A stretch of DNA of 64,000 bases from a virus, in the IMG/VR virus record IMGVR_UViG_3300012920_000023, positions 32,001-96,000 of that record; one strand, 5' to 3'. This document shows, piece after piece, positions 1 through 64,000 of the stretch (positions within the stretch are counted from its first letter, which is position 1; each line of letters opens with the position of its first letter). The notes beneath the pieces are model-generated. The model made no database searches, was not told where the DNA came from, and worked only from the letters and a program-made list of their open reading frames with translations. The translations under genes and the position numbers were made by a program.

Positions 1-2
1 TG

Positions 3-386
3 AAAGACTCTGCGATTAAGAAAGCGAGTGGCAAAGAGGGTTCAAGGTCTTTTCAGTTCTCCGCACCCAAGGATAATAAAGACCATAAACGCAATCGTCC
101 ACATGCCCACGTTAATCCGGCGAATAATAAACGACAGACCTTTAACAGCCCTCAGTTTAAGTACAATAATCGACAGTATCGTTTGCGTGCAAAACAGGCT
201 TGTGGTCGAAACGCAAGAAACTATTTCCGAGCGAAGATGGGGCGTGCACCGTTAAAGAGCAAAGACCTTTACCGTCGATGCCGTGACGGTAAGATTCCTA
301 CTTGGGCCGAGTCGGTAACAGACGCATATACTGCAACAAAAGAGTATCTTGTTGGAAGACTGCGTCAGAGCAAACAAGGTAAATAA
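3..386 (+). CDS. Partial (5'-truncated) highly basic hypothetical protein
   Basis: The frame of ORF 183..386 is open back to nt 3 (KDSAIKKASGKEGSRSF...); K/R-rich; stop 3 nt before the next start. Confidence 0.7.
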   Translation, partial: KDSAIKKASGKEGSRSFQFSAPKDNKDHKRNRPHAHVNPANNKRQTFNSPQFKYNNRQYRLRAKQACGRNARNYFRAKMGRAPLKSKDLYRRCRDGKIPTWAESVTDAYTATKEYLVGRLRQSKQGK

Positions 387-389
387 TCG

Positions 390-872
390 ATGGCTGTTTA
401 TACTCCCACTCAAGGCGAAGTTGGACTCCACCACTTTTATGAAGATGAACGAATCGGATTGAGTGGACAAGAGGGGGAGTATTATACAGTCAATCGTGCA
501 CGCAATGTTGACCCTCTGTACAATGAACCTACTGCAAATGCCGGTGGGTGGGGTTTTGAACCTGTATTTAAAGCGATATTTGCAGTCGAGTTTGAGACAG
601 CAGATAACGTAGAAATCGAGGTTCAAGACCGGGGTTATCATGAGGACGCAAATGTGAAGATCACGGTCTCCTACCTTGAATGGCAGAGGAAGTCTCCGGA
701 CTTAGCAAAGTATCCTCAACCTAAAGAGGGCGATATCGTTTACGTTATGGGCCGTTATTTTGACATTGTGAAAGCCAAGGATAAAGGGCGTCTTGTTCAT
801 TCAAATACTCCATCGGGCTATGTTATAGAGGGCCGACAGAGAACTAAGCATTTACCGCAGAGAAGAATCTAA
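390..872 (+). CDS. Putative neck / head-closure protein (T4 gp14-like)
   Basis: DPLYNEP motif and C-terminal PKEGDIVY...YFDI typical of head-closure proteins; lies upstream of terminator and sheath. Confidence 0.55.
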   Translation: MAVYTPTQGEVGLHHFYEDERIGLSGQEGEYYTVNRARNVDPLYNEPTANAGGWGFEPVFKAIFAVEFETADNVEIEVQDRGYHEDANVKITVSYLEWQRKSPDLAKYPQPKEGDIVYVMGRYFDIVKAKDKGRLVHSNTPSGYVIEGRQRTKHLPQRRI

Positions 873-1241
873 ATGATACCTGTTGAGTTGGTAAAGAAAG
901 CCACAGACAGTGGGGTGGTTTTTACATGTGCTATGTGCTTAAACTTTTGGCGTGCAAAGGCGAGCAACTTAAATGAGTGTAGGCCATTACTCAGTAGCGA
1001 GTGCTCCGGGCCACTCCGGGGTAAAGGTTATCCTCATTATGACGGGGTTTTAAAAGGGAACTTACACACGGCCTGTTTTGTGTGTGGGTGTAAACCCGAT
1101 GGAGTTTTAAAGACTCACGACGGGGTTATGGTTGGTGTCTGCAACAAGCATCGAGATGCTCTTTTTGATTTCAGTGGGCCGGTAGATGGTCGCCCCGAGA
1201 CTGCCGATTCATTGAAAGTAGAAGAGAAGACAGATGCCTAA
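873..1241 (+). CDS. Cys-rich putative Zn-binding protein
   Basis: CAMC, CFVCGC and CNKH motifs; directly coupled to neighbours. Confidence 0.6.
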   Translation: MIPVELVKKATDSGVVFTCAMCLNFWRAKASNLNECRPLLSSECSGPLRGKGYPHYDGVLKGNLHTACFVCGCKPDGVLKTHDGVMVGVCNKHRDALFDFSGPVDGRPETADSLKVEEKTDA

Positions 1242-2073
1242 CTATAAGTCGTCACGCACAAGTATATCGCCGATGATTCTCCCGGATAGAAAGACAGAGA
1301 GAGCCTACAAGGAAATTGAAGTCATGCCGGAGAGGGTTACTGAGGGGTATAAACTTGTCGCACTTGAAGCGACTACAATCGTTCTTGATTTTATAAAAAG
1401 GAACGCACCGATAATAGATAATGATGATTACTCTGCAAGGCTTGAGCCGGTCTATTCAGTCAGTAGTGATGGGACTGTAAATGTCTCTATCATAGGTAAA
1501 AACTTGGATCGAAAGACGAACGCCGAGGACGCTACTTCAATCGCTTTCCTTTATGCCAAAGGTATGCTTGAACCTAAGACAGCAAAGGCTTATGAGGTGC
1601 TTAGGAAGTATCAACCTTGGCCGGTAGGATTATATCCCTTACCCACGGGTGGCAGTAATGGCATTGGCCTTACGATAAGAAAAGTATCCGGACTTGAGTA
1701 TCAAACCCAAACTCTTAGGATTAATAAGAGTAAGAGTCGTATTGAGGGCACTTTGAGAAGTCTAGGGTTTGATGTAAATATAGCGACGAGTTCAGAGCCG
1801 AAAACTGTGCAGACAGACTTGGCTTTTGCTATCTTGCAGGTTGAGTATGGAATCGGTAGGAAAGCAGATTCTCATTGGAGGACTGCTATCTCCCGGCTAA
1901 AACGAGAGATCGGAGTACTCCAAGGCAAGTTTAAGCGTTTTATTGCCGAGGGACGGGAATCAATTTTTGTTATTGACAACACCATTGTAGAAGTGTCAAA
2001 AATAAAAGACTTAGACTCGCAATTACAAGAGCGTGTTGCTCAAAGTACCGGTTTAAAAGTTGAAAAACAATAA
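1234..2073 (+). CDS. Hypothetical protein, neck/tail-completion region
   Basis: 279-aa ORF overlapping the upstream stop; context only. Confidence 0.6.
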   Translation: MPNYKSSRTSISPMILPDRKTERAYKEIEVMPERVTEGYKLVALEATTIVLDFIKRNAPIIDNDDYSARLEPVYSVSSDGTVNVSIIGKNLDRKTNAEDATSIAFLYAKGMLEPKTAKAYEVLRKYQPWPVGLYPLPTGGSNGIGLTIRKVSGLEYQTQTLRINKSKSRIEGTLRSLGFDVNIATSSEPKTVQTDLAFAILQVEYGIGRKADSHWRTAISRLKREIGVLQGKFKRFIAEGRESIFVIDNTIVEVSKIKDLDSQLQERVAQSTGLKVEKQ

Positions 2074-2094
2074 CAATCAGAGGAGAGAAGTAAG

Positions 2095-2277
2095 ATGAGT
2101 AATGAGAATCTGCAAAAAATGGCCTTGGCTCTTTCAGACGTAGAAGCAGAGTTAAAACGGCGTCGAGAGGCAGAAACGATGGGTGAGCCATCAGAGGAAT
2201 TTCTTGATGCGTTCGATGATCTTGAAGACCTTGAAGATTATTTTGATGATGAGGTGGTCGACAACGACGACGAGTAA
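2095..2277 (+). CDS. Small protein with very acidic C-terminus
   Basis: AGGAG RBS upstream; D/E-rich tail. Confidence 0.6.
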   Translation: MSNENLQKMALALSDVEAELKRRREAETMGEPSEEFLDAFDDLEDLEDYFDDEVVDNDDE

Positions 2278-2321
2278 CGATAAACTCTATTCTACCTATG
2301 GTTTTTCATAAAGGTAGATAG

Positions 2322-3344: not shown

Positions 3345-5807
3345 ATGTCTACTTATACTTATCCCGGGGTCTATATTAAAGAAGTACCCAAAGGGCCGGG
3401 GCCGGTGCAGGGCGTTTCAGCAAGCACTTGTGCGATGATCGGCTTTACCGAAGAGGGGGTTGTTGATCAACCAACATTAGTTACAAGTTTCCCCGAGTTT
3501 GTAGCATCTTTCGGTAACTTTACCACTTCAAGTCGTTTACCGACTTCTGCTTTTGCGTTTTTTCAAAACGGAGGACAGAACCTAGTCGTTGTTCGCACTG
3601 TAGGTGATAACGCAGAGGAAGCGAAAGGGATTATCGACGAGCCATACGCTAACTTAACCTCAGATGTAGCACCGGCTCCAAACGGTAATGCAGGAACCTT
3701 TACATTTAACCTTGAGCACACTCCGATTGTTCCCGGTTCATTGACGTTCACCTTTAATGGTAATAACTATACATCAGATGCAAGCGGTGTTCTCACGTTC
3801 CTCAATCAACCGCAAGGGAATAGTGGGTCAGTAAACTATCAAACCGGTGCGGTCTCGCTCACTGTCACTGCCAATGTTCCTCTCCTTGCACAGGTTCAAA
3901 CGATTACCTATAAGAACGCAAACATTACATTCTGTGCGTCATCACCCGGCATTTGGGGGAATGGCTTACAGGTTGTTCTTGAGGGCGATGATAACTCAGT
4001 CGATGCAAACGACGAATACACCTTATTCAATCTGATTGTAGAACGCTTAGATGACGATGGCAATTATGTACCCGTTGAGGTGATTAACGGAATTAATTTT
4101 GATGAGGACTCCGCTTCATTCATTCAAACGCTTGTTAATGACGACCGACGAGGGAGTGATCTCATCACTATTGTCGCAGGAAGTTCTCCAAAGACTCCTG
4201 CCGGATTAAGAGACAGACAGAAGACAGCACTTAAGAACTCTGCTCCTGCTATCGACGGAACTTCTCAGCAGTTGACTTATACACTAGGTGAACCTGTTAA
4301 CTCGAACACACTTCGTGGCGAGATTGTGATCGGTGACACTTTTGTTGATGCGATTAATAACAATCAATCATCCGGGTTTACTATTCCAAACTTTAGAGAT
4401 GTGACCGGTCAAACGAGTATCAATGCTCTGATTACCTACAGCGACAATTCAACAGAGTTGCTCACTTTTAATCAAGCACAGGCCGGAACAGCAATGACGG
4501 CAGGTTTTGAGAAGGACGCAGATGCGAATAATGCCCAAGAGGGTCTTCTTAAGGGTAACATCGTTATTCAAGCAAATGATGGCTCTTATGCTATTAATCT
4601 CTCCAATAATGAAGCGAATGCCCCAACCATCGCAAACATTACTTGGTCGTGGATACGTGCAGACAAACTCATTGTAGAAGATGATGGCACTAATGAGTTA
4701 GTGGTCGTTTCCGCCCCGGTAGGCTTGTCACTCAATCCTAATGGTGAAAACAAGATCGACCTAGCGACGGGTGAGGTTAAGTTACACCCGACCTTTGCAC
4801 AAGTAGGCAGTCTGCCCGAACGTGGCCCTGCTCCTGTCCTTGGTCTTACCGGAGAAATGTCTTTTACATATACCGTTGACACCGTTGCGACTCAGTTGAG
4901 CGTTGCTTTGACCGGTGGTGCCGACGGCGGTGCTTTGACAAGGGGGAATGTTTCAAATCCTACTTTGGCAGGGGATGAAAAGGGCTTATATTCACTAAAC
5001 AAAACCGAGGCTTTGTTGAATGTTTGTATCCCGGACTTTGCATCGAACACGGTTGTCTCTCAAGACCTCATTGATTACTGCGAGACTCGTAAAGATCGAT
5101 TTGCGATCATCTCAGTACCGGAGGGTTTCACTTATAAAGAGGCTATTGAATACAAGCGAAACACTTTACTGCGAAACAGCAATCGTTGTGCGATCTACTA
5201 TCCGCATTTGAAGTTGATTGATCCCATCTCCGAGAACGAGATCAACTTCCCGGCGGTGGGTCACATGGCAGGTATTTATGCACGAACAGACTCAACCCGA
5301 AATGTGTCTAAAGCACCTGCCGGTACTGTGGATGGTCGTTTAGCATTTGCGAGTGGAGTTGAGGTTGAGTTGACTCCGCAACAAGCCGGTTTTGTAAATA
5401 CCGCACACATTAACAACCTCGTCTCTTGGCCATTCACCGGCTTAGTGGCTTGGGGTGCTCGCACCTTAGAAGCAAACGGCGACTTCCCTTACATTCAAAT
5501 GCGACGCCTGTTCATGTTTGTCGAGAAGTCAGTGTTCAACGCTACTCAAGGTTTTGTGTTTGAGTCTAATACAGCAGGTCTGCGTGCAAGCATTAAACTT
5601 CAAATTGAAGCGTTCTTATTGAGTCTTCATCGCAGTGGTCACTTTGCCGGTACATCACCTGCACAGTCATTCTTTGTGATTTGTGACACATCTAACAATC
5701 CTCAGAACTTGATCGATCAAGGTCAACTTACTGTGGATGTTGGTATCGCTCCGACTAAGCCTGCCGAGTTTATCATCTTCCGTTTCCAACAGAAGACCAT
5801 ATCCTAG
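3345..5807 (+). CDS. Contractile tail sheath protein
   Basis: N-terminal YPGVYIKE, FFQNGG, KAPAG, WGARTL, RRLFMFVE and C-terminal VGIAPTKPAEFIIFRFQQ are sheath hallmarks. Confidence 0.97.
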   Translation: MSTYTYPGVYIKEVPKGPGPVQGVSASTCAMIGFTEEGVVDQPTLVTSFPEFVASFGNFTTSSRLPTSAFAFFQNGGQNLVVVRTVGDNAEEAKGIIDEPYANLTSDVAPAPNGNAGTFTFNLEHTPIVPGSLTFTFNGNNYTSDASGVLTFLNQPQGNSGSVNYQTGAVSLTVTANVPLLAQVQTITYKNANITFCASSPGIWGNGLQVVLEGDDNSVDANDEYTLFNLIVERLDDDGNYVPVEVINGINFDEDSASFIQTLVNDDRRGSDLITIVAGSSPKTPAGLRDRQKTALKNSAPAIDGTSQQLTYTLGEPVNSNTLRGEIVIGDTFVDAINNNQSSGFTIPNFRDVTGQTSINALITYSDNSTELLTFNQAQAGTAMTAGFEKDADANNAQEGLLKGNIVIQANDGSYAINLSNNEANAPTIANITWSWIRADKLIVEDDGTNELVVVSAPVGLSLNPNGENKIDLATGEVKLHPTFAQVGSLPERGPAPVLGLTGEMSFTYTVDTVATQLSVALTGGADGGALTRGNVSNPTLAGDEKGLYSLNKTEALLNVCIPDFASNTVVSQDLIDYCETRKDRFAIISVPEGFTYKEAIEYKRNTLLRNSNRCAIYYPHLKLIDPISENEINFPAVGHMAGIYARTDSTRNVSKAPAGTVDGRLAFASGVEVELTPQQAGFVNTAHINNLVSWPFTGLVAWGARTLEANGDFPYIQMRRLFMFVEKSVFNATQGFVFESNTAGLRASIKLQIEAFLLSLHRSGHFAGTSPAQSFFVICDTSNNPQNLIDQGQLTVDVGIAPTKPAEFIIFRFQQKTIS

Positions 5808-7536: not shown

Positions 7537-7812
7537 ATGATGATTAAAAGCAGAAAAATGGTGGTATTTACGGTATCCTTAGTGATGTTTCTTGGGAACT
7601 ATCTACTTGGTTCTCCGCTTCCGGAGGATCAAGTACAGCAGTTTTTAGTGTTGATCGTAGGTTGGTTAGTTGCACAAGGTGTTGCTGATGCAGGCACGCA
7701 GGGGCAGGTGAATTCTGCCCTCCGGGCCTCTAAGCAAGGACAGCAGATTATAGAAACAGTTAAAAGCCTTAAGAACGAGCAAGAATCTATCGATGCGTCC
7801 AAAGACAAGTGA
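7537..7812 (+). CDS. Holin-like small membrane protein
   Basis: KSRK followed by two hydrophobic segments and a charged tail. Confidence 0.55.
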   Translation: MMIKSRKMVVFTVSLVMFLGNYLLGSPLPEDQVQQFLVLIVGWLVAQGVADAGTQGQVNSALRASKQGQQIIETVKSLKNEQESIDASKDK

Positions 7813-7844
7813 CGCACACATGTGCACACCGACAGGAGTCAACC

Positions 7845-8741: not shown

Positions 8742-8742
8742 G

Positions 8743-12239: not shown

Positions 12240-13376
12240 TTAATTTTCATCGCTTTGATCTGCAAATGAAAAATGATCGATACGTTCACATGCCGTGTCA
12301 TAGTATTCAGTTGAGATTTCAATACCTTTGAAGTTGAAACCCTCTTTTCCGCAGGCAATCCCGGTGGTTCCCGATCCCATAAAAGGGTCTAGGACTGTGC
12401 CGTTTGCCGGGGTAACTAATCGCACAAGATATTCCATTAATGCTATAGGTTTAACTGTTTTGTGTGTGTTTGGGTCTGATAGCCCGGCCTGCTTTTCTTT
12501 CTTGCTTGCTTTTGGACAGTAGAAAAAGCGTGTTGCTCCACTGCTCTGCCGTTCAAGCGTCTCAAGTGTCTCTGAGTTAGAGAAGATAATGTTTGAGGGA
12601 AACCTGCCTAGCGGATGACTCTCCACAGTTCTTAGTTTAGTTTTAAACGTACCTATTGAGTCATTTGGTTGATGAGTTGATTTCCATGACTCATCGCTCT
12701 CAATCCGGCAGGCATCAATGTTAAGGCCACCGGTTTTATGCTTAAGCACGTTTTTTACCACCGTACCCTCTAAGGGTTTACGCATAACCAAAATAGGCTC
12801 ATAGGCCGGCTTAAGGGTTGTGCCCCATCCCTCAAACTCAGTATGCCCTTTAGTTATGTATGCGGTCTTACCGACTGTGCCGGACTCATACAACGTGTTG
12901 CTCTTATCACATTTTTCCCGGCTATTAGGATTTCGTCCGATAATTTCACGCTCATTTCCGAGTTTTTTGTCTACCATTTTTCCAATATCTTGGCTCTTAG
13001 GGAAGCCACTCCCATAGACCCAATGTAGGCAGTCTCTGCTTTCAAAGTTTGCGATCCTCATAGATAAGCCCATAAGGTCTTGTGTTCTTGAGCCGGCGAA
13101 CACTAGAGCATGACCTCCGGGCTTTAATACTCGATAAACTTCTTTCCATAACGCAGGAGGGGGGACAAATCCGTCCCAAGATTCACCCATGAACCCTTTT
13201 TTATTCGGGGGCACATAGGAATCATCACCATTTGACCATTCAGTCAGTACCTTAATAAACTCTTTAGTTTTTAGTTGCGACAGGCCATAAGGGGGATCGG
13301 TGACAACAGCGTCTATGGTGTTGCTCTGTATCTCTTTAAGAGCCTGCAAGGCTTCTCCGTTGATTAGTTCATTCAT
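12240..13376 (-). CDS. DNA methyltransferase, N4-C/N6-A beta class
   Basis: VTDPPYG precedes VLDPFMGSGTTG; HKTVKP motif. Confidence 0.93.
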   Translation of the reverse strand: MNELINGEALQALKEIQSNTIDAVVTDPPYGLSQLKTKEFIKVLTEWSNGDDSYVPPNKKGFMGESWDGFVPPPALWKEVYRVLKPGGHALVFAGSRTQDLMGLSMRIANFESRDCLHWVYGSGFPKSQDIGKMVDKKLGNEREIIGRNPNSREKCDKSNTLYESGTVGKTAYITKGHTEFEGWGTTLKPAYEPILVMRKPLEGTVVKNVLKHKTGGLNIDACRIESDESWKSTHQPNDSIGTFKTKLRTVESHPLGRFPSNIIFSNSETLETLERQSSGATRFFYCPKASKKEKQAGLSDPNTHKTVKPIALMEYLVRLVTPANGTVLDPFMGSGTTGIACGKEGFNFKGIEISTEYYDTACERIDHFSFADQSDEN

Positions 13377-14946: not shown

Positions 14947-17900
14947 TTAGAGGATCACAAAGTTAAACGTGATATTCGATCCGTCGGCTATCGGTGACCC
15001 GGATTGGTTCGTATAGGTAAACTGAAACGAGCCGTCGGCGACGGTGTGAGGGTGAACATCAACGTGAGCCGAAGCCGTACCCATGATCACGGAGGTGGCT
15101 TTACATAGCGTATTTGAAACGGTGATCGACGTACCCTTTCTAGCACCGTTGCCTAGAGCACCATTAGTAGTCACGGTCACGCTTACACTATGTGTGTTAG
15201 AAGTGAAGTTCCCACTGCTCGTACTCTCATTGGTGCTAGTAGTAGGCTTGCCGAGAATACGCACACCATTACAGTCTAGCGTTGCAAGTGCGGTGTCGGC
15301 AATCGTCGCAGTTGTATCACTATCACTAATGTTAGTTGCATGTCTGTCAAACAACTTGTAAGTGCCGGTATCAGAGCCGTTTGGTTGATATAGGAAGCCG
15401 GCAAACACATCGCTCGATGACGAGTCCTCATACTTGCAGTAAAACCCAATGTTGTTTGTCTGCGGTGAAGTTGCGTTGAGTCCGAGTTGGATCATGGGGT
15501 CTTTGAACTTTACTACAGTCCCTGTTCCCTTAATGGTGCCGGCAACAGTAAGGTCAGCACCTACATCAAGGTCTGTACCGACATCGAGGTCATTACCAAC
15601 CTCAAGGTCTTGAACGATAGAGACATCATCATCAAGTTTAATCGACACGACATTGCTTGAGTTAGTAATATCGATATTGTTATCGGTATTATTAAGCGTA
15701 AGAATCGCAGGACTCGCACCTTGAGTGAAGTTATATTGCCCGGCAGTTCCGGTGGTATCAGTCTTGAGAGTGAACAGTGTGTCGTTCTGCAAGAGGATAT
15801 TCTGTGCACCATTACCGTCGCCACGATCTGCCTGCCAAAGACTACCTGTCTCGTTATAAGCAAGAGTGGCATTAGCACTGTCTCCACGCTCTATAGAGAT
15901 GCCGACAGTATGACTAGGTGTGCCGGTTTGATCACTATTAAGTGTGATAGCAGTAAGCCCCTCGCCGGTAACATTCAATGAAGTCACAGTCGTTACGCCT
16001 GCACCCAAAGTGCCGGTTGTGGACAGATTCTCATCGCCGAATGAAATGGCTCCGGTTGTGTCAGTGATAGACCCGGTGGTGAAAGCCAACGTGCTGTCTA
16101 CAGTCAGATTCCCGAGGATCTTGACATTTCCGACGTCTGCAAACTCCCAATTTGTCTCACTCTCATCCCAAAAGAACTTAGCGTCTGTCGCAGACCCACG
16201 GTTCACGGTCAGACCGAAATCGTCAGTGCTCGCCGGAGCCACACCGCCGGCTAGGTCTGAGTTAAACGTAATCGCTCCTGCGTTCGCAGTTGTGAAGTTA
16301 AGGTTTGAAGTCAGAGTCGTGGCTTGATGGAGTGTAATAGTCTCAGCAAGAGAGTTTATGGTGAGGTAATCTTCGTTTGCGTCCCCTTGTTGAATATGGA
16401 ACGCAGATGCCCGGCCATCGCCTACATTGACGGTAATATCGTTAGTCTTGGGGGAGATCGTAGTAAGTGCAATGTCTGCAACATCTCCAATGTTACCGGC
16501 GTTGTCCATAGAGACACTGCCTGTTACGGTCAGAGATTCAAGGGTTGTCGCTCCTGCGGTTAGAGTACCGGTTGTGGTGATGTTGTCATTGTCAAAACTG
16601 ATCTCTCCTGTGTCGGAGGTGATCTGTAAGTTTGAAGCCCCAAACGTGATGCTTCCACTTGTGCATGAGATTGATCCGTCGGAAATCGTGATGGCATCGG
16701 TTGAACCGCTATCCACAATCAAATCGTTATTAATTTGAACTTTACCGGCGTTATTGAACAACCATGAAAGTTCACCCTCATCCCAATGGAAAATGGCGTT
16801 AGTGCCCGATCCACGGTTGACTGTGATCCCAAAGTCGTCGTTTACATTAGGAGCACTGCCACCGGCGAGGTCAGAGTTGAATACAATCGCCCCTTGTGAA
16901 GCCGTTGGGAAGTTTAAGATACCCTCGGTGGTAATGTTACCGTTTGAAGATGCAATCGTTACTTTCTGTGAGCCAAGAGTAGCACCAATGTGGAGATCGG
17001 CCTGCGAAACTAGTTTAGTGTCAAACGCAAAAGAAGCGTTACTTTGATCCCATTTGAACTTAGCGTTCGTCAGTTCTCCACGCTCCACCTCAATCAAGGT
17101 TGCATCGGCATCTTGACCGCTTCCTGTACGGTCAGAGTTGGCCACAATCAAAGACGCAGTAGCGTCATATTTGAGATTAACGATTCCACCGTGAGTCGTT
17201 GCCTTGGAAAAGGCCACCGGCTCATTGTGTAACACATCCTTTTTAAACTGAATCTCTTCCGAAGAGTCCGTGGTGACGAAAACGAGGTACTCATTAGTGC
17301 TTTCAGTGATTGACAGAGCAGATGGTTGGTTGTCTGCTAGTGAAATCACCATCCCATCACCGGTTTGGTCAGTGATAGAGTCTAGAGCGATGCTTCCTAC
17401 ACCCGAGACATTACCCACTTGAGTAAGACCGCCACTGCTAAAGTCGGCACTTGATACGGTTAGCATACCACCCGTAGTGATCTTTGCGGTTGTAGTGCCG
17501 GCACTCGTTGTGTCTCCGATAGTAAGAGCATTTCCACTTACTCCGGCTTTACCTTGAATGTGCAGACTACCCTGTGGATTGAGGTTAAACTCGCCGGGAT
17601 CTTCATCCCATGAAATGATCGCATTTGTGTCTGTACCACGCTCCACAGTTAGCAGAGTTGCGTCGGCATTATCACCGGCGTTCGTATCATTTGAGTTGAA
17701 CACGATACCGCCACAAGTATCATCTAGGTTAAGAGTGTCGCCTAAAGTTGTAACGCCGGTTACGGCAAGTGTGCTCGTGACTGCGAGAGTACCTGCGATG
17801 GCAGTGTTGCCACTTGAAGCGGTGACATTGAACTTGTTCGCTCCAACAATAAAGTTTCCGGTAGACTTAAGTGCATTAGACAACGCCCAATGGCCATTAG

Positions 17901-20790
17901 TCTCGTCCCACTTGATGCTTGCGTTAGTCTCATCGCCACGCTCTACCTCAATGATTGCGTCTCGCTCTTGGCTTGTGCCTACATCACTGTTGAGCACAAG
18001 CATTGCACTCTGAGAGGCATTACTTAAGTCGCTCGCTTGAATGTTAAGACGGCCTGCCTGCGTAGTCGCACCTGTGGAAGAAACGACAGTGTACTTAGTT
18101 GATCCAACAGCACCTACAGTGAGATTCCCGGTTGAGTTAAGTGCATGACTGAAATCAAACACACCGGGATTAGTGTCCCACTTAATGGTTTTATAAGCCG
18201 GGCCTGCACCGCCGTCATTGACACGGATAAGTGTTGCGTCTCCGGCACTTCCATTTGAAGCGATATCAGAACGGAAGGTGATACCGTCGGATATGCCGTC
18301 CTTGATGTTCAACGCATCTGCAAACGTTGTTGCTCCTGCAATCGAGACAACGCCTGCTGTGCTGACGGTAAACTTGTCGGTGTTGACAGCAAATGTGCCG
18401 TTAGTTGCGATGTTACCGCTAGTGTGTGCGACTGTGAAAGCACCACTGCTCACATTGATTCCACCGTTAGGACTGAGTAGTCCGGAGAAAGACCCGACTC
18501 CAAAACTGCTTGTGGATGTAGATGATGCTGTGAAACCGCCCGATGAACCTGTGCAGGTCATAGAGTCGGCCTTTAACTCATTCCCTCCGAAACTCGTCTC
18601 ACCACTTGCCGAGGTAATCTGTCCGCTTGCGAATGTTAGGTTGGCGATCTTTGACGATGCCGGTAATTCGGTAATCTCATGGAACTGAATCTTGTGTGCA
18701 CTCGTCGTTGTCACAAAAGTGGCGAACCCGTCGGTGTCTGCGGAGGTTCCAATCGTTAAGGCAGAGGGCTTGTTGGCATCTAGGAGAATGTTGAGGTTTG
18801 ACCCATCATCACTCTTCAAAATGTCTGCGGAGAGTGAGCCTACATTAACAATGTTGAAATCACCAACGTCTAGGTTTGCTCCGAGGGTAGTAACTCCCGT
18901 TACTGCTAGTGTACCGGCGATGGCCGTATTACCACTCGCCTGTGCGACTGTAAACTTATTCGTACCGACTGCTGTACCGACTGAGAAGTCTGTGTTTGAG
19001 TGAAGTTTCCCACCGTTTACTGCAAACGTGCTATTGACATCATCCCAAAAAATATAGCCCTCATCGGCATTGCCCGATCCGGCTTCTACAGTGATCAATT
19101 TCACATCGAAGTCAGAACTTTTATTTTGTGCACCACGATCTGAGTTAAAGACGATTCCGAAATCATCGTCCGGTTGGCTTTGAATGAACAGGGTGTCTTT
19201 TACGGTCAACTCTGCGTTTACAAACCCGTTCCTTGTGATGATCAAGTCTTGGCCTACAGTTACATCGGTTGAAACTGAGAGGTTGTGGCTAAACGCCCAA
19301 GTTGTCTCATCATGTTGCCAAGTAATCGTTGAATAAGTATCGCCCATGTCAACGGCAATCACTGCGTTCTGACCCTGCCCTGTGCCTGTATCGGCATTAA
19401 GGATGATCAACTTATCGGATTCAGTAGACTTCTTATTTATACTTAGTGTGGAGTCTGCTCCAAGCGTAGCACCGCCCGTTAGAGTTGACAGTCCGGCTAC
19501 TGAGAGAGTACCGGTTCCTGTCGCACTAATGTTGCCGGAGGTGGTAAGGTTCTCGCTTCCAAAACTAATTTGAGCACCACCGCAGACAATACTTCCATCT
19601 GAGATTGTGATGTCGCCAATGCTTGATCCGGACTTAAAACTAGATACGTCGTTTGTAGCGGTAATCCCACCGTCTGTGTTTACCACGAAGTCATCATTTA
19701 CGTTGATTCCCCCGTCTAGTGAAGCCAAGCCCGTTACGTTGACTTCTCCGGATGCGGTCAAATCTTTAAGAGACAGGTCTGCGTCCGTTGTGTTACCGGT
19801 GGTGAAGTCGGATGCTGTGTGTGCTTCTGTGGTTAGCCCGAATCTAAATGCACTTGCGGAGTCGTCAAAGTACAAGATAGCGTCGTTCCCACTGTTACCA
19901 CGCTCCATCAGAATACCGATATCGTTTGAGTTAGCACCTCCTGCCACCGAGTGGTTCAAGCGAATAACCGGATCTTTAACCTCTAGGGTTGTTGTGTTAA
20001 CCGTTGTGGCAGTTCCGCTAATCAACAGGTCGCCGGTTATTACAACCTTACTGCCTGTACCACCAAGAGTAATGGTGTGTGGGTTATTGCTTCCGTCTTT
20101 AGTAACGGTCGCTCCGATAGAGACATTTCCGTTAGTGAAGTCTAAGCCTGTAAGCCCGGTAAATGCAGTTTCTGTGGCTCCGAGGGCTACAGAAGTCGCC
20201 CCGATAGTCACTGTACTGTTAGTCAGTTTGGCATTTGAGATTGCACTATTATTAATAATGTCGATTTTAGCCGATGTGATAGCACCGCTTTGAAGCGTCG
20301 CCACACCCTCGTTATTGATGTTTAAGTCGCCGGAGATGGGCTTATTTCTAAACTGATTTGCCCCGGTACTCCCGTCGGAGTCAGTATTAAAGATAAGAAA
20401 ATCTGCGTCTGAGAGTGCGTCCTCAGTGCCACCGTCTACTCCTAGGGTGACGTTTGACAGTGAGCCGATCTCAATCGATGAAGCACCACCGGAGTCAACG
20501 TATCCTTTAGTCGCCACGTCGGAGGATTCGGCAGGTTCTTCAACACCTCTTAGCCTAACGGTCGCATTACCTGCACTATCTAGGAACGAAACAACTTGAC
20601 CTGCGGAAAGGACGTTAGAACCGAGGTTGTCCAAGTCGGCTCTGAGTGTCTCACGGCCACCGTTGGTTGTGCCGTCATGGACACGGATAGAACTGTTCGT
20701 AGTGTCTACCGTGATTTCACCGATAGCCCCTGCAAAGGCATCATTTTGCGTGTGTGTACCACGCCTTAGTTTTACTCGTCTTACTGACAT
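14947..20790 (-). CDS. Long tail fibre (1947 aa) with Mtd-like N-terminal domain and about 10 internal repeats
   Basis: N-terminus VKLRRGT...GEITVDTT...RVHDG.T.GG; G/S/T/N-rich; repeated FNSD...VERG...WDE units. Confidence 0.85.
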   Translation of the reverse strand: MSVRRVKLRRGTHTQNDAFAGAIGEITVDTTNSSIRVHDGTTNGGRETLRADLDNLGSNVLSAGQVVSFLDSAGNATVRLRGVEEPAESSDVATKGYVDSGGASSIEIGSLSNVTLGVDGGTEDALSDADFLIFNTDSDGSTGANQFRNKPISGDLNINNEGVATLQSGAITSAKIDIINNSAISNAKLTNSTVTIGATSVALGATETAFTGLTGLDFTNGNVSIGATVTKDGSNNPHTITLGGTGSKVVITGDLLISGTATTVNTTTLEVKDPVIRLNHSVAGGANSNDIGILMERGNSGNDAILYFDDSASAFRFGLTTEAHTASDFTTGNTTDADLSLKDLTASGEVNVTGLASLDGGINVNDDFVVNTDGGITATNDVSSFKSGSSIGDITISDGSIVCGGAQISFGSENLTTSGNISATGTGTLSVAGLSTLTGGATLGADSTLSINKKSTESDKLIILNADTGTGQGQNAVIAVDMGDTYSTITWQHDETTWAFSHNLSVSTDVTVGQDLIITRNGFVNAELTVKDTLFIQSQPDDDFGIVFNSDRGAQNKSSDFDVKLITVEAGSGNADEGYIFWDDVNSTFAVNGGKLHSNTDFSVGTAVGTNKFTVAQASGNTAIAGTLAVTGVTTLGANLDVGDFNIVNVGSLSADILKSDDGSNLNILLDANKPSALTIGTSADTDGFATFVTTTSAHKIQFHEITELPASSKIANLTFASGQITSASGETSFGGNELKADSMTCTGSSGGFTASSTSTSSFGVGSFSGLLSPNGGINVSSGAFTVAHTSGNIATNGTFAVNTDKFTVSTAGVVSIAGATTFADALNIKDGISDGITFRSDIASNGSAGDATLIRVNDGGAGPAYKTIKWDTNPGVFDFSHALNSTGNLTVGAVGSTKYTVVSSTGATTQAGRLNIQASDLSNASQSAMLVLNSDVGTSQERDAIIEVERGDETNASIKWDETNGHWALSNALKSTGNFIVGANKFNVTASSGNTAIAGTLAVTSTLAVTGVTTLGDTLNLDDTCGGIVFNSNDTNAGDNADATLLTVERGTDTNAIISWDEDPGEFNLNPQGSLHIQGKAGVSGNALTIGDTTSAGTTTAKITTGGMLTVSSADFSSGGLTQVGNVSGVGSIALDSITDQTGDGMVISLADNQPSALSITESTNEYLVFVTTDSSEEIQFKKDVLHNEPVAFSKATTHGGIVNLKYDATASLIVANSDRTGSGQDADATLIEVERGELTNAKFKWDQSNASFAFDTKLVSQADLHIGATLGSQKVTIASSNGNITTEGILNFPTASQGAIVFNSDLAGGSAPNVNDDFGITVNRGSGTNAIFHWDEGELSWLFNNAGKVQINNDLIVDSGSTDAITISDGSISCTSGSITFGASNLQITSDTGEISFDNDNITTTGTLTAGATTLESLTVTGSVSMDNAGNIGDVADIALTTISPKTNDITVNVGDGRASAFHIQQGDANEDYLTINSLAETITLHQATTLTSNLNFTTANAGAITFNSDLAGGVAPASTDDFGLTVNRGSATDAKFFWDESETNWEFADVGNVKILGNLTVDSTLAFTTGSITDTTGAISFGDENLSTTGTLGAGVTTVTSLNVTGEGLTAITLNSDQTGTPSHTVGISIERGDSANATLAYNETGSLWQADRGDGNGAQNILLQNDTLFTLKTDTTGTAGQYNFTQGASPAILTLNNTDNNIDITNSSNVVSIKLDDDVSIVQDLEVGNDLDVGTDLDVGADLTVAGTIKGTGTVVKFKDPMIQLGLNATSPQTNNIGFYCKYEDSSSSDVFAGFLYQPNGSDTGTYKLFDRHATNISDSDTTATIADTALATLDCNGVRILGKPTTSTNESTSSGNFTSNTHSVSVTVTTNGALGNGARKGTSITVSNTLCKATSVIMGTASAHVDVHPHTVADGSFQFTYTNQSGSPIADGSNITFNFVIL

Positions 20791-24501: not shown

Positions 24502-24563
24502 TCAGTGCACACGTGTGCACACGTTTAGGGAGTTGGGCAACCACCCATCTCTCCGGAGGCTCT

Positions 24564-26651
24564 ATGATATTTTCCGGCGAAAATGAGGGGCGAAAGGTAC
24601 GTTCTTTTGTCCTGCCTAGTTCATTTATTGATCAATATAAAGAAAGGCAACCCAAGTGGGGGCCATTAGGTTACATAACTTATAAGCGAACTTATGCTCG
24701 GCCTAAGCCGGATGGAAGTTCAGAAGAGTTCTATGAGACTGCTCAAAGAGTAGTTGAGGGTGTGTACAATGTCCAAAAGATACACTGTAGAAGACTCGGA
24801 CTTCCTTGGGATGATCGTAAGGCTCAAAAATCTGCTCAAGAAATGTACCGCCGTATGTGGGAGTTTAAGTTCCTCCCACCGGGGCGTGGTCTATGGATGA
24901 TGGGCACAGAGCAGGTTTACAAGAACGGCAGTGCAAGCCTTAATAACTGTGCGTTTGTATCAACGAAAGACATAGCCACTGATTTTGCATCTCCGTTCAC
25001 CTTTTTGATGGATATGTCTATGCTAGGAGTTGGCGTCGGGGGTGACTGTAAAGGTGCAGGATTAGTACGGATTGTTGAGCCATCCATTGATGAAGAAACT
25101 TATAAAGTAGAGGATAGCCGGGAGGGGTGGGTTGGACTTCTGAGGGTTATTTTAAACGCCTATGTAGGAAAGGGCAGTCTCCCGGCAGAGGTTGATTACA
25201 GTGATGTCCGGCCTTACGGTACACCTATTAAGGGCTTTGGTGGTGTAGCAAGTGGCCCTAAGCCTTTGATTGAACTTACTGATAAAGTTAAAGAAGTCCT
25301 TAATACTCCCGGTGAGTTAATCACGACCTCGCAGATCGTAGACATATTCAACCTTATCGGTGTGTGTGTTGTAGCAGGCAATGTTCGGCGTACTGCCGAG
25401 ATTATGTTCGGTGAGCCGGACGACGAGGTTTTCGCAAAACTAAAAGACCCATCTGAACTCAATGAACTTTATCGCCGGCAACAAGAACTTGAGAGCGATT
25501 ATACGTTTCCCGATGAAAGTGTAGAGTCTAAGATCGAAGAGGTTAAGAGACAAATCTCAAATCACCCTCTGCGAACTCACCGGTGGGCTTCAAATAACTC
25601 AATATTTGCCGAGATAGGAATGGACTACAGCACGATAGCCGAGTCAATAAAGGCGAACGGAGAACCGGGCTTGGTTTGGTTAGACACAATGAGAGATTGG
25701 GGCCGGCTCATTGATCATAAACCTAACGGTAAAGATTATCGTGCGATGGGTTCAAACCCATGTGCAGAGCAGACTCTTGAGTCCTTTGAGTTGTGCTGTT
25801 TAGTAGAGACATTCCCGGCTCATCATGATGATCTAGATGATTATTTAGACACATTAAAATACGCATATCTGTATGCAAAAACCGTGACCCTCATTCCGAC
25901 TCATGACCCCCGGACAAACACTGTTATGAACAGGAATCGTCGTATAGGTTGCAGTCAATCGGGGATTGTACAAGCGATGAACAAGTTAGGCAGAAGAACT
26001 TATCTTAATTGGTGCAACATCGGTTACAATCGCATTAAGACTCTTGATAGGAAATACTCAGAGTGGCTAGGCATCCCGAAGTCGATTAAGACAACCTCAG
26101 TAAAGCCGTCCGGCACTGTCTCACTTCTGTGTGGTGCGACTCCGGGCATCCACTTCCCTCACAGTGAATACTATATACGTCGCATTCGTATCGCCGAGGG
26201 ATCACCTTTAGTCGAAATGTGTGCTAATGCCGGTTACCCCGTTGAAACCGATGTTTATGATCAGACCGGCAAGACTATGGTTGTGTCTTTTCCTGTCAAA
26301 GAGGAGCATTACACTAAAGGGAAGAGTGAAGCCACTATATGGGAGCAGGTTGTCAATGCCGTTGACTTACAGCACTATTGGGCCGATAATCAAGTTAGTG
26401 TGACTGTTACTTTTAGCAAAGATGAGGGAAATCAGATTGTGCCGGTGTTAGAGTCATTTGAGAACCGACTTAAGAGCATATCATTCCTACCAATATCGGA
26501 ACACGGATATGCTCAAGCACCTTATGAGACAATCAGTGAGTCGGATTACAACACGCTTATAGAGAATATAAAGCCCATGTTGTTGACTATTGATGGCCAT
26601 GATGTAGAAGATAAATTCTGCGACGGTGACAGTTGCGAAATAAACTTTTAA
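24564..26651 (+). CDS. nrdJ: Class II (adenosylcobalamin-dependent) ribonucleoside-triphosphate reductase, monomeric type
   Basis: PPGRGLW, LNNCAF, AGNVRRTA, catalytic NPCAEQ, VKPSGTVS, C-terminal CDGDSC; start at ATG 24564 behind GGAGG. Confidence 0.95.
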   Translation: MIFSGENEGRKVRSFVLPSSFIDQYKERQPKWGPLGYITYKRTYARPKPDGSSEEFYETAQRVVEGVYNVQKIHCRRLGLPWDDRKAQKSAQEMYRRMWEFKFLPPGRGLWMMGTEQVYKNGSASLNNCAFVSTKDIATDFASPFTFLMDMSMLGVGVGGDCKGAGLVRIVEPSIDEETYKVEDSREGWVGLLRVILNAYVGKGSLPAEVDYSDVRPYGTPIKGFGGVASGPKPLIELTDKVKEVLNTPGELITTSQIVDIFNLIGVCVVAGNVRRTAEIMFGEPDDEVFAKLKDPSELNELYRRQQELESDYTFPDESVESKIEEVKRQISNHPLRTHRWASNNSIFAEIGMDYSTIAESIKANGEPGLVWLDTMRDWGRLIDHKPNGKDYRAMGSNPCAEQTLESFELCCLVETFPAHHDDLDDYLDTLKYAYLYAKTVTLIPTHDPRTNTVMNRNRRIGCSQSGIVQAMNKLGRRTYLNWCNIGYNRIKTLDRKYSEWLGIPKSIKTTSVKPSGTVSLLCGATPGIHFPHSEYYIRRIRIAEGSPLVEMCANAGYPVETDVYDQTGKTMVVSFPVKEEHYTKGKSEATIWEQVVNAVDLQHYWADNQVSVTVTFSKDEGNQIVPVLESFENRLKSISFLPISEHGYAQAPYETISESDYNTLIENIKPMLLTIDGHDVEDKFCDGDSCEINF

Positions 26652-47453: not shown

Positions 47454-47764
47454 TGGGAACTAGAACTGTTTTTATACCTACTAAGGCCAAACGTCAGAAT
47501 CGGGAGTTTGAACCACCTGTTGAGCCGGGAGAGCATACCAAGTATGGTTTCTGTCATTATCTTCAAAGATGGGTTCGCCGAGATACTATGTTAGGCGTTA
47601 ATATACGCTTTTATAACGCCGACAATGAGCAGACAACGATTAAACTAAGGTTATCCCCCGAGGGGTGGCAGGATCTCATCGACAGGGCGACTCCTGCGAA
47701 TTGGGATAATGAGTTAAAAACTAAAGCCGAGTTGGATGCAGAGGGGATAGAGTATGACTCTTGA
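47450..47764 (+). CDS. Hypothetical protein
   Basis: Coupled ORF. Confidence 0.55.
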   Translation: MMGTRTVFIPTKAKRQNREFEPPVEPGEHTKYGFCHYLQRWVRRDTMLGVNIRFYNADNEQTTIKLRLSPEGWQDLIDRATPANWDNELKTKAELDAEGIEYDS

Positions 47765-48440
47765 GCCGGTCTATATAGGCGACGGTTTTGTCAAATTAGT
47801 CGACAAGATGATTAGCCCTGCGGATCTAAAGGTCGTGAACTCTGCTAGAATCTCAATGGGTAAGCAGACCGAGAAAATGAAGCCTAGAGATGATCGGCTT
47901 ATCGAGTATTTGGCTCGTGAGAACCACACCTCACCTTTTAGGCATACTTACATGACCTTTCATATCAAGGCTCCCATCTTTGTACTTAGGCAATGGCAGA
48001 AGCATCAAGTCGGTTGCAGTTTCAACGAGATATCGGGTCGATACGTTGAGTTTAAACTTGAGTATTGGAAGCCGACGGAATGGCGAGAGCAGGCAGATAA
48101 TGTTAAGCAGGGCTCCGGCGGTGATATAGTTGACATGGGCATGAAAAAAATTGTGGAAGACACCTATCGAGAGTGCTGTGATTCTGCGTTTGATGCTTAT
48201 GAGTCTCTCTTAGCATTAGGGGTATGTCGAGAGCAGGCGAGGGCTTGCTTACCCTTAGCCATATACTCTGAGTGTTATTGGACTGTAAGTATGCAGGCCG
48301 TTGCTCACTTCTTAAAATTGAGGGAGGACTCTCATGCTCAAGCGGAGATAAGAGATTATGCTCAAGCGGTACGCTATTTAATCGGTGAGGGTATTTATGG
48401 CGGTGAAAAGGTATTAGGAGCGTTAAATGGCGAGGGGTAA
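47754..48440 (+). CDS. thyX: Flavin-dependent thymidylate synthase
   Basis: H.SPFRH, APIFV.RQW.KH, FNEISGRY, REQAR..LP, LR.DSHAQ.EIR. Confidence 0.95.
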   Translation: MTLEPVYIGDGFVKLVDKMISPADLKVVNSARISMGKQTEKMKPRDDRLIEYLARENHTSPFRHTYMTFHIKAPIFVLRQWQKHQVGCSFNEISGRYVEFKLEYWKPTEWREQADNVKQGSGGDIVDMGMKKIVEDTYRECCDSAFDAYESLLALGVCREQARACLPLAIYSECYWTVSMQAVAHFLKLREDSHAQAEIRDYAQAVRYLIGEGIYGGEKVLGALNGEG

Positions 48441-59579: not shown

Positions 59580-60485
59580 TTAAGATTTCTTTGATCTCGA
59601 CTTTCGTGGAAAGCAGTAGTCTCTAACTTTGCAATCTTTCGCCCGGTAGGATGACTTTTTAGGGCATGAGTCGATCCGGTCATAAAGAGGTACTTCTAAG
59701 CCGAGATCAGAAGCGGTGGCACAGTCCTTAAGCATACCTTGAATAAGTTTGATTTGAGCGTCATCTCGCTCAACGATATGCTCACAGATCCCCTCCGGGA
59801 ATAGCATATTCAAGTCTTTATTAATGTAAACAATCCGGGCTCTCTCTAGCCCGGTGAGCCACATATAAGCCTGTACTTGAATGACATGCTCTCCTTTCGG
59901 TCTACCGCCGAGAGCAGGATCAACATTATCATACCCACGGCTTGAGATCGTTTTCAGTTCAAGGGCTTCAATGTCATCTTCACCCCATACTAGGACTCCG
60001 TCCATGTGGCCGGTGAGCCTATACTCTTGATTTACAAACTCTAACTCTTCATAGACCCAATCGTCGCCGTCCGGCTTAGGTATCCACTTATGGCTTAATG
60101 AATACTCACTCAGTTTAGATCCTTTAGCCAATGTCGAAGCCGAGTGTGATCTTGATGATGTTCCTCTCTTCCACCACCCTTGAAAAACATCGCCAAGTGT
60201 AGGCAGGTAATCCTCTTGAAATTGAGTGTGGATTGCAGTGCCCGACCCAAATATCCATCTAAGTTTTGAGTCAACTTCAATAGCGAGGTTAACATTATGT
60301 TCTTTTCCGAGTTGGAGGGATCTTGGGCATAGCCTATACAGACCGCTTGATCTAAACCACATATTCTCATGGGGAGTTTGATCTCTTCTCACCTCCGGCA
60401 TTGATTCCCAAAGAGCCTCTTGCAAACGCCGGCTTTGAGGTACTGCCTTGGGTTTCATTACATCATTGAGGATACTGCCTAACAT
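59580..60485 (-). CDS. Cas4-like / RecB-family PD-(D/E)XK exonuclease
   Basis: CPR, GTAIH, GHMDG, ELKT, QVQAYM, C-terminal Cys cluster. Confidence 0.85.
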   Translation of the reverse strand: MLGSILNDVMKPKAVPQSRRLQEALWESMPEVRRDQTPHENMWFRSSGLYRLCPRSLQLGKEHNVNLAIEVDSKLRWIFGSGTAIHTQFQEDYLPTLGDVFQGWWKRGTSSRSHSASTLAKGSKLSEYSLSHKWIPKPDGDDWVYEELEFVNQEYRLTGHMDGVLVWGEDDIEALELKTISSRGYDNVDPALGGRPKGEHVIQVQAYMWLTGLERARIVYINKDLNMLFPEGICEHIVERDDAQIKLIQGMLKDCATASDLGLEVPLYDRIDSCPKKSSYRAKDCKVRDYCFPRKSRSKKS

Positions 60486-60898: not shown

Positions 60899-61010
60899 AT
60901 AAAAAAGAAAAAAATAAGTTGCAACTTAAAGCACCTTAAGTCCGGTTGATTGAAGTTCAAGGTGTCTATATGCTATTGTAACGACACACACTTAAGGCAA
61001 GGATATTATT

Positions 61011-62221: not shown

Positions 62222-62233
62222 GATCTGCCTCTC

Positions 62234-62857
62234 TTACCAATCAAGATCAGTATCTTCGACTTCACGATACTCATCTTCCCGACTAGGCTTTATGGTAGGT
62301 TGTACCACCTGCTGTGCACCGAAAAACCGATCTTGGCATGACCATAGAAAATTGATAGTAGGCAGACCGCTTAACCGGCCTCGACTGCTCGTAACCATGC
62401 CCGGCCATTCCTCCACAAAGTTTTTGATCACGATCTCGACCATCTCTCGGGTGTAGTTTTGGCATAGTTTTTTAGCGAGAGTGTTCTCCTTTACTCCCCA
62501 TCGCTTAGTTATGACCTCTTGGCCATACACCACATTAATCTGTGCTTTGAAATACTTTTCAAGCCCGGCAGAGATCGACTTCGTTTTCGCAGGCTTTTTT
62601 TTAGCAGGCTTGGGTTCTACCGGTGGCTCCATTGCTAACGGTGGGTAGGTTGCCGGTCTGCTTTTTCTGTTGTACTGTTCAGAGAGGCTCTGAAATACGG
62701 TTCTCCGGCGTTGCGGTTGCTCATAAAACTCAGAGAGATTTTGATCTAGTTCTTGATCTGCAAATGCATCGTAAATGTCTTTTACTTTTTTAGGCTCAAA
62801 CGAAACGCTCTCTCTGCGTTTTAAGTTTTTAAGCCTTTTCAACTTATTGATACTCAA
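62234..62857 (-). CDS. Hypothetical protein, possible replication-initiation accessory
   Basis: GGAGG RBS; basic linker plus helical C-terminal domain; function is inference only. Confidence 0.5.
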   Translation of the reverse strand: MSINKLKRLKNLKRRESVSFEPKKVKDIYDAFADQELDQNLSEFYEQPQRRRTVFQSLSEQYNRKSRPATYPPLAMEPPVEPKPAKKKPAKTKSISAGLEKYFKAQINVVYGQEVITKRWGVKENTLAKKLCQNYTREMVEIVIKNFVEEWPGMVTSSRGRLSGLPTINFLWSCQDRFFGAQQVVQPTIKPSREDEYREVEDTDLDW

Positions 62858-62873
62858 CTTTTTCCTCCTATCT

Positions 62874-63170
62874 TTAGTCTACAGAGGTATCGAGTTCTAT
62901 TTGGTGGGGTTCGTAAGTCGAAATCAAGTTTTTTATTTGAACAACATAGACGCAATAGTCTTTTGTGTTATCATATTGAGCACTTATGCGAGACAAAAGA
63001 AGTTTCGCTTCTGACGTACTCAAGCCTCCTAGAACCATCTCAAGGCTTCGTCTCTCTAAGATGATTCCTCGTTCGTCTCTTTCTGTGCGAACAGAGTCCC
63101 CGACCCGGAGTCGCCATATTTTGTTATTGAGTAAGTCTTTAAAATGCGTTCTCTTAAACTCTTTAAACAT
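62874..63170 (-). CDS. Hypothetical protein
   Basis: Open frame in the minus-strand operon; start uncertain. Confidence 0.45.
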   Translation of the reverse strand: MFKEFKRTHFKDLLNNKIWRLRVGDSVRTERDERGIILERRSLEMVLGGLSTSEAKLLLSRISAQYDNTKDYCVYVVQIKNLISTYEPHQIELDTSVD

Positions 63171-63469
63171 TTAAGGTACTCCGGAGCACAGTTCCACTTA
63201 AAATCGATGCCATCAAGTAACCAAAAAGGACTGCGAATCCTCGTGTCATCTATTTTCCAACCATCTGCCAAGAGAATGAGATATAAAAAGCATCTTTGTG
63301 CACCATCAAACTTGTTGGCGATGCCTTTAAGTTGGTTGATGCGTTCTCTCGGGTTGATGTTCGGGCGTCTAGGCAAGGAGATCGACATGATCTCGCCATC
63401 AATGATAATCTCATGTCGGTTATTCTTCAACCTATTAACTTGGCTCAGTCGCTTCAACCGGCTATCCAT
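63056..63469 (-). CDS. Hypothetical protein
   Basis: AGGAG RBS; overlaps the downstream ORF by 115 nt. Confidence 0.45.
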   Translation of the reverse strand: MDSRLKRLSQVNRLKNNRHEIIIDGEIMSISLPRRPNINPRERINQLKGIANKFDGAQRCFLYLILLADGWKIDDTRIRSPFWLLDGIDFKWNCAPEYLKCLKSLRERILKTYSITKYGDSGSGTLFAQKETNEESS

Positions 63470-63480
63470 TCACGCTACTC

Positions 63481-63759
63481 CTATCTGTTGCGTTCAGTGA
63501 TGTAATCCATCTCAACTTTGAGTCCCTCTCGACCACCGTGTGCTGTTAAGATACTTCTTATCGCAGAGACTACATGCCCACTCTTACCGATGACTTGACC
63601 CACATCCTTTTTGTCTGTGTGGAGTTCTACTATTAATCTGAACTGCGAGGGGACTATATTCACCTCAACAGTCTCCGGACTATCGACTATCCCTTTTATG
63701 ATAGTAGTGACTAGATTCTTAAGGTTGTCTATATGTTCTCGGGTAATTTGTTTGCTCAT
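63481..63759 (-). CDS. khpA: Single-KH-domain RNA-binding protein (KhpA-like)
   Basis: LV..I...IVD.PE.V.V, D.GQVIGKSG....AIR.IL with GxxG loop. Confidence 0.85.
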   Translation of the reverse strand: MSKQITREHIDNLKNLVTTIIKGIVDSPETVEVNIVPSQFRLIVELHTDKKDVGQVIGKSGHVVSAIRSILTAHGGREGLKVEMDYITERNR

Positions 63760-63762
63760 CTT

Positions 63763-63999
63763 CTACCACCTTATCATTGGAAAATTGTCGCTCATGTACT
63801 CGTCAAACTCTTGACTATTAAGTGCTAAAGTCTCGACTTGATCTATACTGTGTTGAGGTTCATAATACAGGTCTCTTACGATATCTGCACCATATTTTAA
63901 AAAGGCTCCCGGAGTAATCGAGTAATAGTCGTTAAAAGATTGTTCCTTAGAGACATACTTCCATCCACAGTCATTGGATATGGATTCAATAGGAATAAG
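63763..63999 (-). CDS. Partial (5'-truncated) hypothetical protein
   Basis: Frame open from the window end (LIPIESISNDCGWKY...FPMIRW*). Confidence 0.55.
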   Translation of the reverse strand, partial: LIPIESISNDCGWKYVSKEQSFNDYYSITPGAFLKYGADIVRDLYYEPQHSIDQVETLALNSQEFDEYMSDNFPMIRW

Positions 64000-64000
64000 C

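Follow-up and report, generated by a model that had tools for sequence, protein, structure and literature searches.

GCNGC and Ala-Ala in the phage contig

We looked at a 64-kb window of phage DNA that corresponds to bases 32001-96000 of the single 113,463-bp contig G000:C1 (IMG/VR record IMGVR_UViG_3300012920_000023; window position 1 is contig position 32001). The phage is an uncultured, tailed phage of freshwater type, and the contig has a GC content of 45%. It encodes a contractile-tail virion, whose sheath has 820 aa and whose 527-aa capsid protein is a distant relative of the T4 type, as well as PhoH, MazG, a RecA-like protein, a DnaB-type helicase, a primase, the ribonucleotide reductase NrdJ, the thymidylate synthase ThyX and three DNA methyltransferases. 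The long open reading frames (ORFs) are all intact. The subject of this analysis is the loss of the DNA word GCNGC from this genome, together with that of the dipeptide Ala-Ala.

GCNGC was found neither in the window nor in the whole contig, on either strand, and GCAGC, GCTGC, GCCGC and GCGGC were each counted 0 times contig-wide; for GCNGC, 66+83 were expected under a Markov model and 157+128 from mononucleotide composition. For the other counts, we used a set of 152 non-overlapping ORFs representing 34,365 aa and 91% of the DNA. When codon order was shuffled within these genes, 270±15 GCNGC were expected (minimum over 200 shuffles, 229), and when synonymous codons were shuffled with the proteins kept fixed, the expectation was still 104±9 (minimum 71). 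Ala-Ala was also absent from the 34,365 residues, for 152 pairs expected from composition and 159±12 from the codon-order shuffle. Ala accounts for 6.66% of the residues, and Ala-Ala ranks lowest of the 400 dipeptides; in other phage ORFs, its observed/expected ratio is 1.12. The loss of GCNGC and Ala-Ala is therefore far beyond chance.

These counts bear out a sequence-only reading of the window, which had noticed that several large proteins were devoid of Ala-Ala and had suspected that the whole genome was affected. The 820-aa sheath and the 938-aa, 1947-aa, 1208-aa and 724-aa proteins that it named contain no Ala-Ala, where 6.5, 9.8, 16.5, 4.2 and 2.9 pairs were expected, respectively. It had also argued that no synonymous change can rescue this dipeptide. 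Indeed, the N of GCNGC is the wobble base of the Ala codon, so that every GCN GCN pair contains GCNGC and can be removed only via an amino-acid change. Accordingly, when all codon pairs and triplets were enumerated against the set of words purged from this genome, Ala-Ala was the sole dipeptide that could not be encoded. The loss of GCNGC spans all frames, both strands and intergenic DNA. Since the out-of-frame sites and those of the noncoding strand are also gone, it is the DNA word that is targeted, rather than the dipeptide.

Conserved Ala-Ala sites in the sheath, NrdJ and other proteins

Alignments with homologues show that ancestral Ala-Ala pairs have been replaced in this phage. In the sheath, the motif RCAIYYP stands where all seven related sheaths have RAA[IL]YYP, a loss of Ala-Ala that the sequence-only reading had also proposed. 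In four related contigs, whose GC content is 56% and whose GCNGC counts are normal, the sheaths contain 13-19 Ala-Ala each. The same reading had pointed to an Ala-Ala to Ala-Ser change in NrdJ, and this was also found. Among 120 NrdJ homologues, the GSAALNNC site carries Ala-Ala in 67%, Ala-Cys in 25% and Ala-Ser in 5%. The close relatives that keep Ala-Ala, P0003-P0010 (74-80% identical), all have GSAALNNC, while GSASLNNC is found in this phage, in P0001 (98% identical), and in P0002 and P0011. At a second NrdJ column, 70% of the homologues have Ala-Ala and this phage has Ala-Val.

To extend this comparison, conserved columns were drawn from all orthologue sets with at least 5 relatives. In 15 columns, Ala-Ala is present in at least 60% of the homologues, and this phage has it in none of them. 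Sites in the terminase, portal and capsid proteins are changed as well. One of the two Ala was kept in 9 of the 13 ungapped columns. Examples are SSAAT replaced by SSATT, DYAAW by DYANW, HLAAL by HLAIN and GTAAD by RTAID. Altogether, the ancestral pairs gave way to S, C, G, T, I, N, K, L or E beside a retained Ala.

ThyX, in contrast, turned out to be a weak example. The sequence-only reading had taken its VNSARIS motif as a replacement of Ala-Ala, and AARVS is indeed present in two solved structures (PDB 6j61 and 1kq4). However, only one of the seven other phage homologues covering the motif has Ala-Ala at this position, the rest showing YCARVS, YTARVS, YIARVS or YCAKVS.

Other purged words, gene content and relatives

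The sequence-only reading had attributed the amino-acid changes to a defence specific for GCNGC. The forced changes are supported by the homologue alignments, but the specificity for GCNGC did not hold, since about twenty other restriction-type words are purged as well. Expectations for these words were computed genome-wide from base composition. AGCT (431 expected), CGCG (285), GCGC (285) and GGWCC (157) were all counted 0 times, CCCGC 2 times (131 expected), CCAG/CTGG 3 times (704), CCTGA 5 times (194) and CCTTC 6 times (199). Moreover, AAATTT, AGGCCT, CATATG, CCATGG, CGATCG, CTGCAG, GGATCC, GGTACC, TAATTA and TACGTA are each present in 0 or 1 copy genome-wide. Words made of A and T only are thus also concerned (AAATTT 1, TAATTA 0, and AATTTA/TAAATT 5 for 99 expected), and AATT is at about one third of expectation in the window (118 for 367). 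Most of the purged words match Type II specificities, namely those of AluI, BstUI/FnuDII, HhaI, AvaII, FauI, HpyAV and PstI, as well as PvuI, BamHI, KpnI, NcoI, NdeI, StuI and SnaBI. We know of no enzyme with the specificity of CCAG/CTGG, and of none for CCTGA. The three CCAG/CTGG survivors are CTGG at genome positions 185, 4619 and 85548. This asymmetric 4-mer is also counted 0 times in seven related contigs (L001-L004, L010, L015 and L017; 56% or 41% GC), whose other purged words differ.

Some short words were retained. GATC is present 497 times for 451-461 expected, GGCC is slightly low (247 for about 293), and CCGG reaches twice its expectation (740 for 323-370). The CCGG excess seems to follow from the purge of CCAG/CTGG. 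Before a codon starting with G, Pro is encoded by CCG 253 times and by CCA once, and 379 of the CCGG sites are of the form xCC|GGx.

At the protein level, Ala-Ala is the sole dipeptide clearly depleted in comparison with 290,000 aa of other phage ORFs. Dipeptides that are only partly constrained by the purged words were not depleted against this background (forbidden coding share versus depletion, Spearman -0.08, p 0.11). Gly-Pro has an observed/expected ratio of 0.46, near the background value of 0.63, and Pro-Gly and X-Trp are likewise not depleted. Gly-Pro, Pro-Gly and Trp-Pro can still be encoded, since the phage retains GGSCC, CCSGG and GGCC. The tripeptides Trp-Asp-Pro and Met-Asp-Pro cannot be encoded and are absent, yet only about 1-2 copies of each were expected, which makes their absence uninformative.

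The trait is confined to one lineage. L010, a sister contig from a different sample with a capsid protein 82% identical and 41% GC, has 0 GCNGC, AGCT, CGCG, GCGC and CCAG/CTGG, and 0 Ala-Ala. L011, with the same capsid identity of 82%, retains 56 GCNGC and 24 Ala-Ala. Of the 147 other phage contigs for which 10 or more GCNGC were expected, only L010 is purged, and the median observed/expected ratio is 1.14. Avoidance thus varies between related phages, this phage and L010 being purged and L011 and 145 other contigs not. In a quick NrdJ tree, this phage groups with P0001, P0002 and P0011, all free of Ala-Ala, and with P0003, in a subclade with a support of 97; the proteins of the sister subclade have 2-5 Ala-Ala each. 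The 98%-identical NrdJ is catalogued on three other contigs, with 0 Ala-Ala. The NrdJ of P0003 (80% identical) has a single Ala-Ala, which is the conserved GSAALNNC pair, and P0003 may represent a lineage in which the purge halted at the pair under the strongest constraint. The sets of purged words vary among these relatives, as expected if the purge tracks the enzyme repertoire of the host. Two NrdJ-bearing contigs have lost mainly one half of the GCNGC set: L103 has 0 GCWGC and 5 GCSGC, and L025 has 16 GCWGC and 1 GCSGC. The GCWGC-only loss in L103 and the near GCSGC-only loss in L025 indicate that separate half-site readers exist. We also observed that the two GCNGC-free genomes have a lower GC content (45% and 41%) than their relatives (51-57%), for which either the removal of GC-rich words or the host might account.

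The features of the window are collected in Table 1. A Pfam scan covering about 30 of the 152 ORFs detected the three DNA methyltransferases, two of the D12 class and one N6/N4, which points to self-methylation combined with site loss; no C5-cytosine methylase was found among the ORFs scanned. No tRNA genes were found in the window. For NrdJ, translation probably begins at 24564, because the catalogued product is 695 aa long. DNA hypermodification, such as the hydroxymethylcytosine of T4, was considered as another route against restriction and rejected: the words are purged and not kept, and the only DNA-modifying enzymes among the ORFs scanned are the three ordinary methyltransferases.

Table 1. 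Features of the 64-kb window (window coordinates)
Feature	Position	Strand	Evidence or remark
Stretch without GCNGC, both strands	1..64000		0 observed versus codon-order and synonymous shuffles; part of the contig-wide purge
Tail sheath gene, 820 aa	3345..5807	+	0 Ala-Ala versus 13-19 in related sheaths
Sheath motif RCAIYYP	5184..5204	+	RAA[IL]YYP in 7/7 related sheaths
Two adjacent D12-class N6-adenine DNA methyltransferase genes	7809-8741, 8719-9576	+	PF02086, E 1e-18 and 2e-15
N6/N4 DNA methyltransferase gene, adjoins endolysin gene	12240..13376	-	PF01555, E 8e-32
1947-aa ORF, putative fibre (label from the sequence-only reading)	14947..20790	-	9.2% Ala, 0 Ala-Ala versus 16.5 expected
Class II ribonucleotide reductase NrdJ, monomeric ribonucleoside-triphosphate reductase type	24513..26651	+	PDB 1l1l, E 2e-102
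NrdJ motif SASLNNCAF	24930..24956	+	SAALNNC in 67% of 120 homologues and all close kin keeping Ala-Ala
938-aa ORF, putative tape measure (label from the sequence-only reading)	27625..30441	+	10.2% Ala, 0 Ala-Ala versus 9.8 expected
Flavin-dependent thymidylate synthase ThyX	47754..48440	+	PDB 6j61, E 1e-45
ThyX motif VNSARIS	47835..47855	+	AARVS in two solved ThyX; first position varies among other phage ThyX; weak example
PD-(D/E)XK nuclease gene	59580-60485		Pfam scan

The phage has no close described relative. A search of the phage collection gave no near match: against all phage records, cultured and uncultured, identity does not exceed 33% for the capsid protein (29% with the closest cultured phage) and 43% for NrdJ. 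The closest cultured relatives by capsid protein or NrdJ (29-43% identical) are Flavobacterium, Rhodothermus, Microcystis and Actinomycetia phages. Neither the N6/N4 methyltransferase nor the endolysin matched anything in scans of the genome collection, and no host was obtained. In the metagenome scan, the closest NrdJ relative was no nearer than 65% identity, and these sequences were used as a background set. The closest uncultured relatives come from lake metagenomes; one sample is from Lake Simoncouche, and the number of another was traced to a Lake Erie metagenome announcement.

Selective pressures and consequences for phage proteins

Classical restriction-site avoidance taken to completion is the best explanation for these results, and we consider it likely. 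Selection would have stripped the lineage of GCNGC altogether, together with the other purged words. GCNGC is recognized by Fnu4HI-type Type II enzymes, and two enzymes, one reading GCWGC and the other GCSGC, could jointly have had the same effect. An enzyme cutting unmethylated GCNGC would make each site costly for a phage without protection for this word. Sites would have been removed synonymously where possible and by amino-acid change at Ala-Ala. About 160 Ala-Ala pairs have thus been replaced, mostly with one Ala kept, including beside conserved NrdJ and sheath motifs. We infer that a restriction endonuclease of the host exerts this selection. The words that are kept, GATC, GGCC and CCGG, would be either uncut by the host or shielded by the three methyltransferases of the phage, and the D12-class (Dam-like) enzymes may provide a second, methylation-based route of protection. 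GCNGC has been handled as a Type II recognition site (PMC6286503), M.Fnu4HI methylates G5mCNGC, with 5mC for 5-methylcytosine (PMC12707154), and GCWGC methylation was found in lake Chloroflexi (PMC6329791).

The best-known parallel is Staphylococcus phage K, a Kayvirus, whose lack of Sau3AI (GATC) and Sau96I (GGNCC) sites is ascribed to staphylococcal restriction enzymes (PMC6532042, PMC7596081). In its bases 1-100000 (NC_005880), we counted 0 GATC, 0 GGNCC for 71 expected and 0 Gly-Pro for 55 expected, as well as 3 GCNGC and 3 Ala-Ala for 55 expected. Like the phage studied here, phage K is a large virulent myovirus that has lost short Type II words genome-wide, and in both an N-centred 5-mer erases the dipeptide spelled by two four-fold codon families. 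For phage K, the host and the enzymes are known. In the phage studied here, many more words are purged, including four 4-mers expected 140-700 times each, and Ala-Ala is reduced to zero instead of three. The Kayvirus papers describe missing sites and not missing dipeptides (PMC6532042, PMC7596081). In a survey of virulent double-stranded DNA phages by Rusinov et al. (2018), the recognition words of restriction-modification systems were, as here, under-represented in comparison with composition; the effect was greatest when the phage was non-temperate and the site an orthodox Type II one (PMC6286503). Unlike here, however, GCNGC was mostly not avoided in that survey, with only 22.5% of phage genome-site pairs below expectation, and amino acids and codons were not discussed (PMC6286503). 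In this phage, avoidance is total and extends to the proteins. No description of dipeptide loss through site avoidance was found in the literature searched.

Several points weigh against restriction-site avoidance. The host searches gave no match, and no restriction enzyme or methylase specific for GCNGC came to light. Words without an enzyme known to us (CCAG/CTGG and CCTGA) are purged too, and at least part of the pressure may therefore not come from classical Type II systems. In addition, P0002 and P0011 are each known from one protein, their membership of the lineage resting mainly on the GSAS motif, and by a Poisson estimate a 690-aa protein with 4-5% Ala would be free of Ala-Ala by chance in about 13-27% of cases.

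Other pressures on the same words can be envisaged. Without GCNGC, the phage would not be marked by a host M.GCNGC cytosine methylase and would escape modification-dependent (Type IV) enzymes cutting G5mCNGC in the next strain. Such enzymes exist, as SauUSI prefers S5mCNGS (PMC6532042) and TagI cuts M.Fnu4HI-modified DNA (PMC12707154), and GCNGC is down to 3 copies in 100 kb of phage K, a phage of SauUSI-carrying hosts. However, the words purged along with GCNGC form a typical classical Type II list that includes A/T-only 6-mers unable to carry 5mC, which makes Type IV avoidance unlikely in our view. Alternatively, the phage could avoid words at which its own sequence-specific nucleases destroy host DNA. 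The PD-(D/E)XK nuclease gene of the window would fit this possibility, and the CCAG/CTGG purge, common to many relatives that differ in GC content and in other purged words, could be a property of the clade. Nevertheless, more than 20 words would need many nucleases and only one candidate nuclease was seen; besides, the GCNGC purge is not clade-wide, L011 and L010 differing in a way that fits a host-dependent pressure. We judge self-avoidance to be quite improbable.

Selection at each site would not be needed if GCNGC were methylated to 5mC and lost via C-to-T deamination, like vertebrate CpG, and M.Fnu4HI-type enzymes do produce 5mC (PMC12707154). Yet GTNGC/GCNAC, into which deamination would turn the word, are not in excess (ratio 1.04), the replacements of Ala-Ala are diverse and not mainly Val-Ala or Ala-Thr, and decay alone would fall short of zero at conserved protein motifs, so that we give this explanation very little credit. 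A sequencing or assembly artefact, in which base calling would go systematically wrong at a modified motif and erase the word from the consensus, is still harder to defend: L010, an independent contig of a different phage and sample, has the same purge, the 98%-identical NrdJ on three other contigs is free of Ala-Ala, the long ORFs are intact, and the replacements are conservative and common to relatives. Finally, the absence of Ala-Ala from every protein could suggest selection at the protein level, for example against a host protease site, with the loss of GCNGC as a by-product. This is refuted by the shuffles with fixed proteins, which still leave 104±9 GCNGC expected for 0 found, and by the reverse strand and intergenic DNA, which are also free of GCNGC; it is hardly conceivable.

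Restriction-site avoidance is a classical mechanism (PMC6286503, PMC12707154), and this phage is an extreme case of it. It would mean that host restriction is able to override purifying selection on proteins, as about 160 amino-acid positions have been altered genome-wide, some of them adjacent to the cysteine motif of the NrdJ active site or within a conserved motif of the sheath, and this would set a lower bound on the cost of one cleavable site to this phage. A missing dipeptide could then serve as a simple proteome marker of specific defence pressure in uncultured viruses, and the differing purge sets among relatives could help to link phages to hosts, given host methylomes. Whether dipeptide-erasing purges are a general, so far undescribed constraint of host restriction on proteins seems to us an even question. 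Such purges would work for N-centred 5-mers made of two four-fold codon stems: GCNGC would erase Ala-Ala, GGNCC Gly-Pro and CCNGG Pro-Gly, and likewise ACNGT Thr-Val and GTNAC Val-Thr. Phage K, which is well studied, already shows dipeptide erasure. If the constraint is general, a dipeptide missing from a virus would reveal the restriction specificity of its host without a host genome, and the last surviving pairs, such as the GSAALNNC pair in the NrdJ of P0003, would rank the importance of each pair to its protein.

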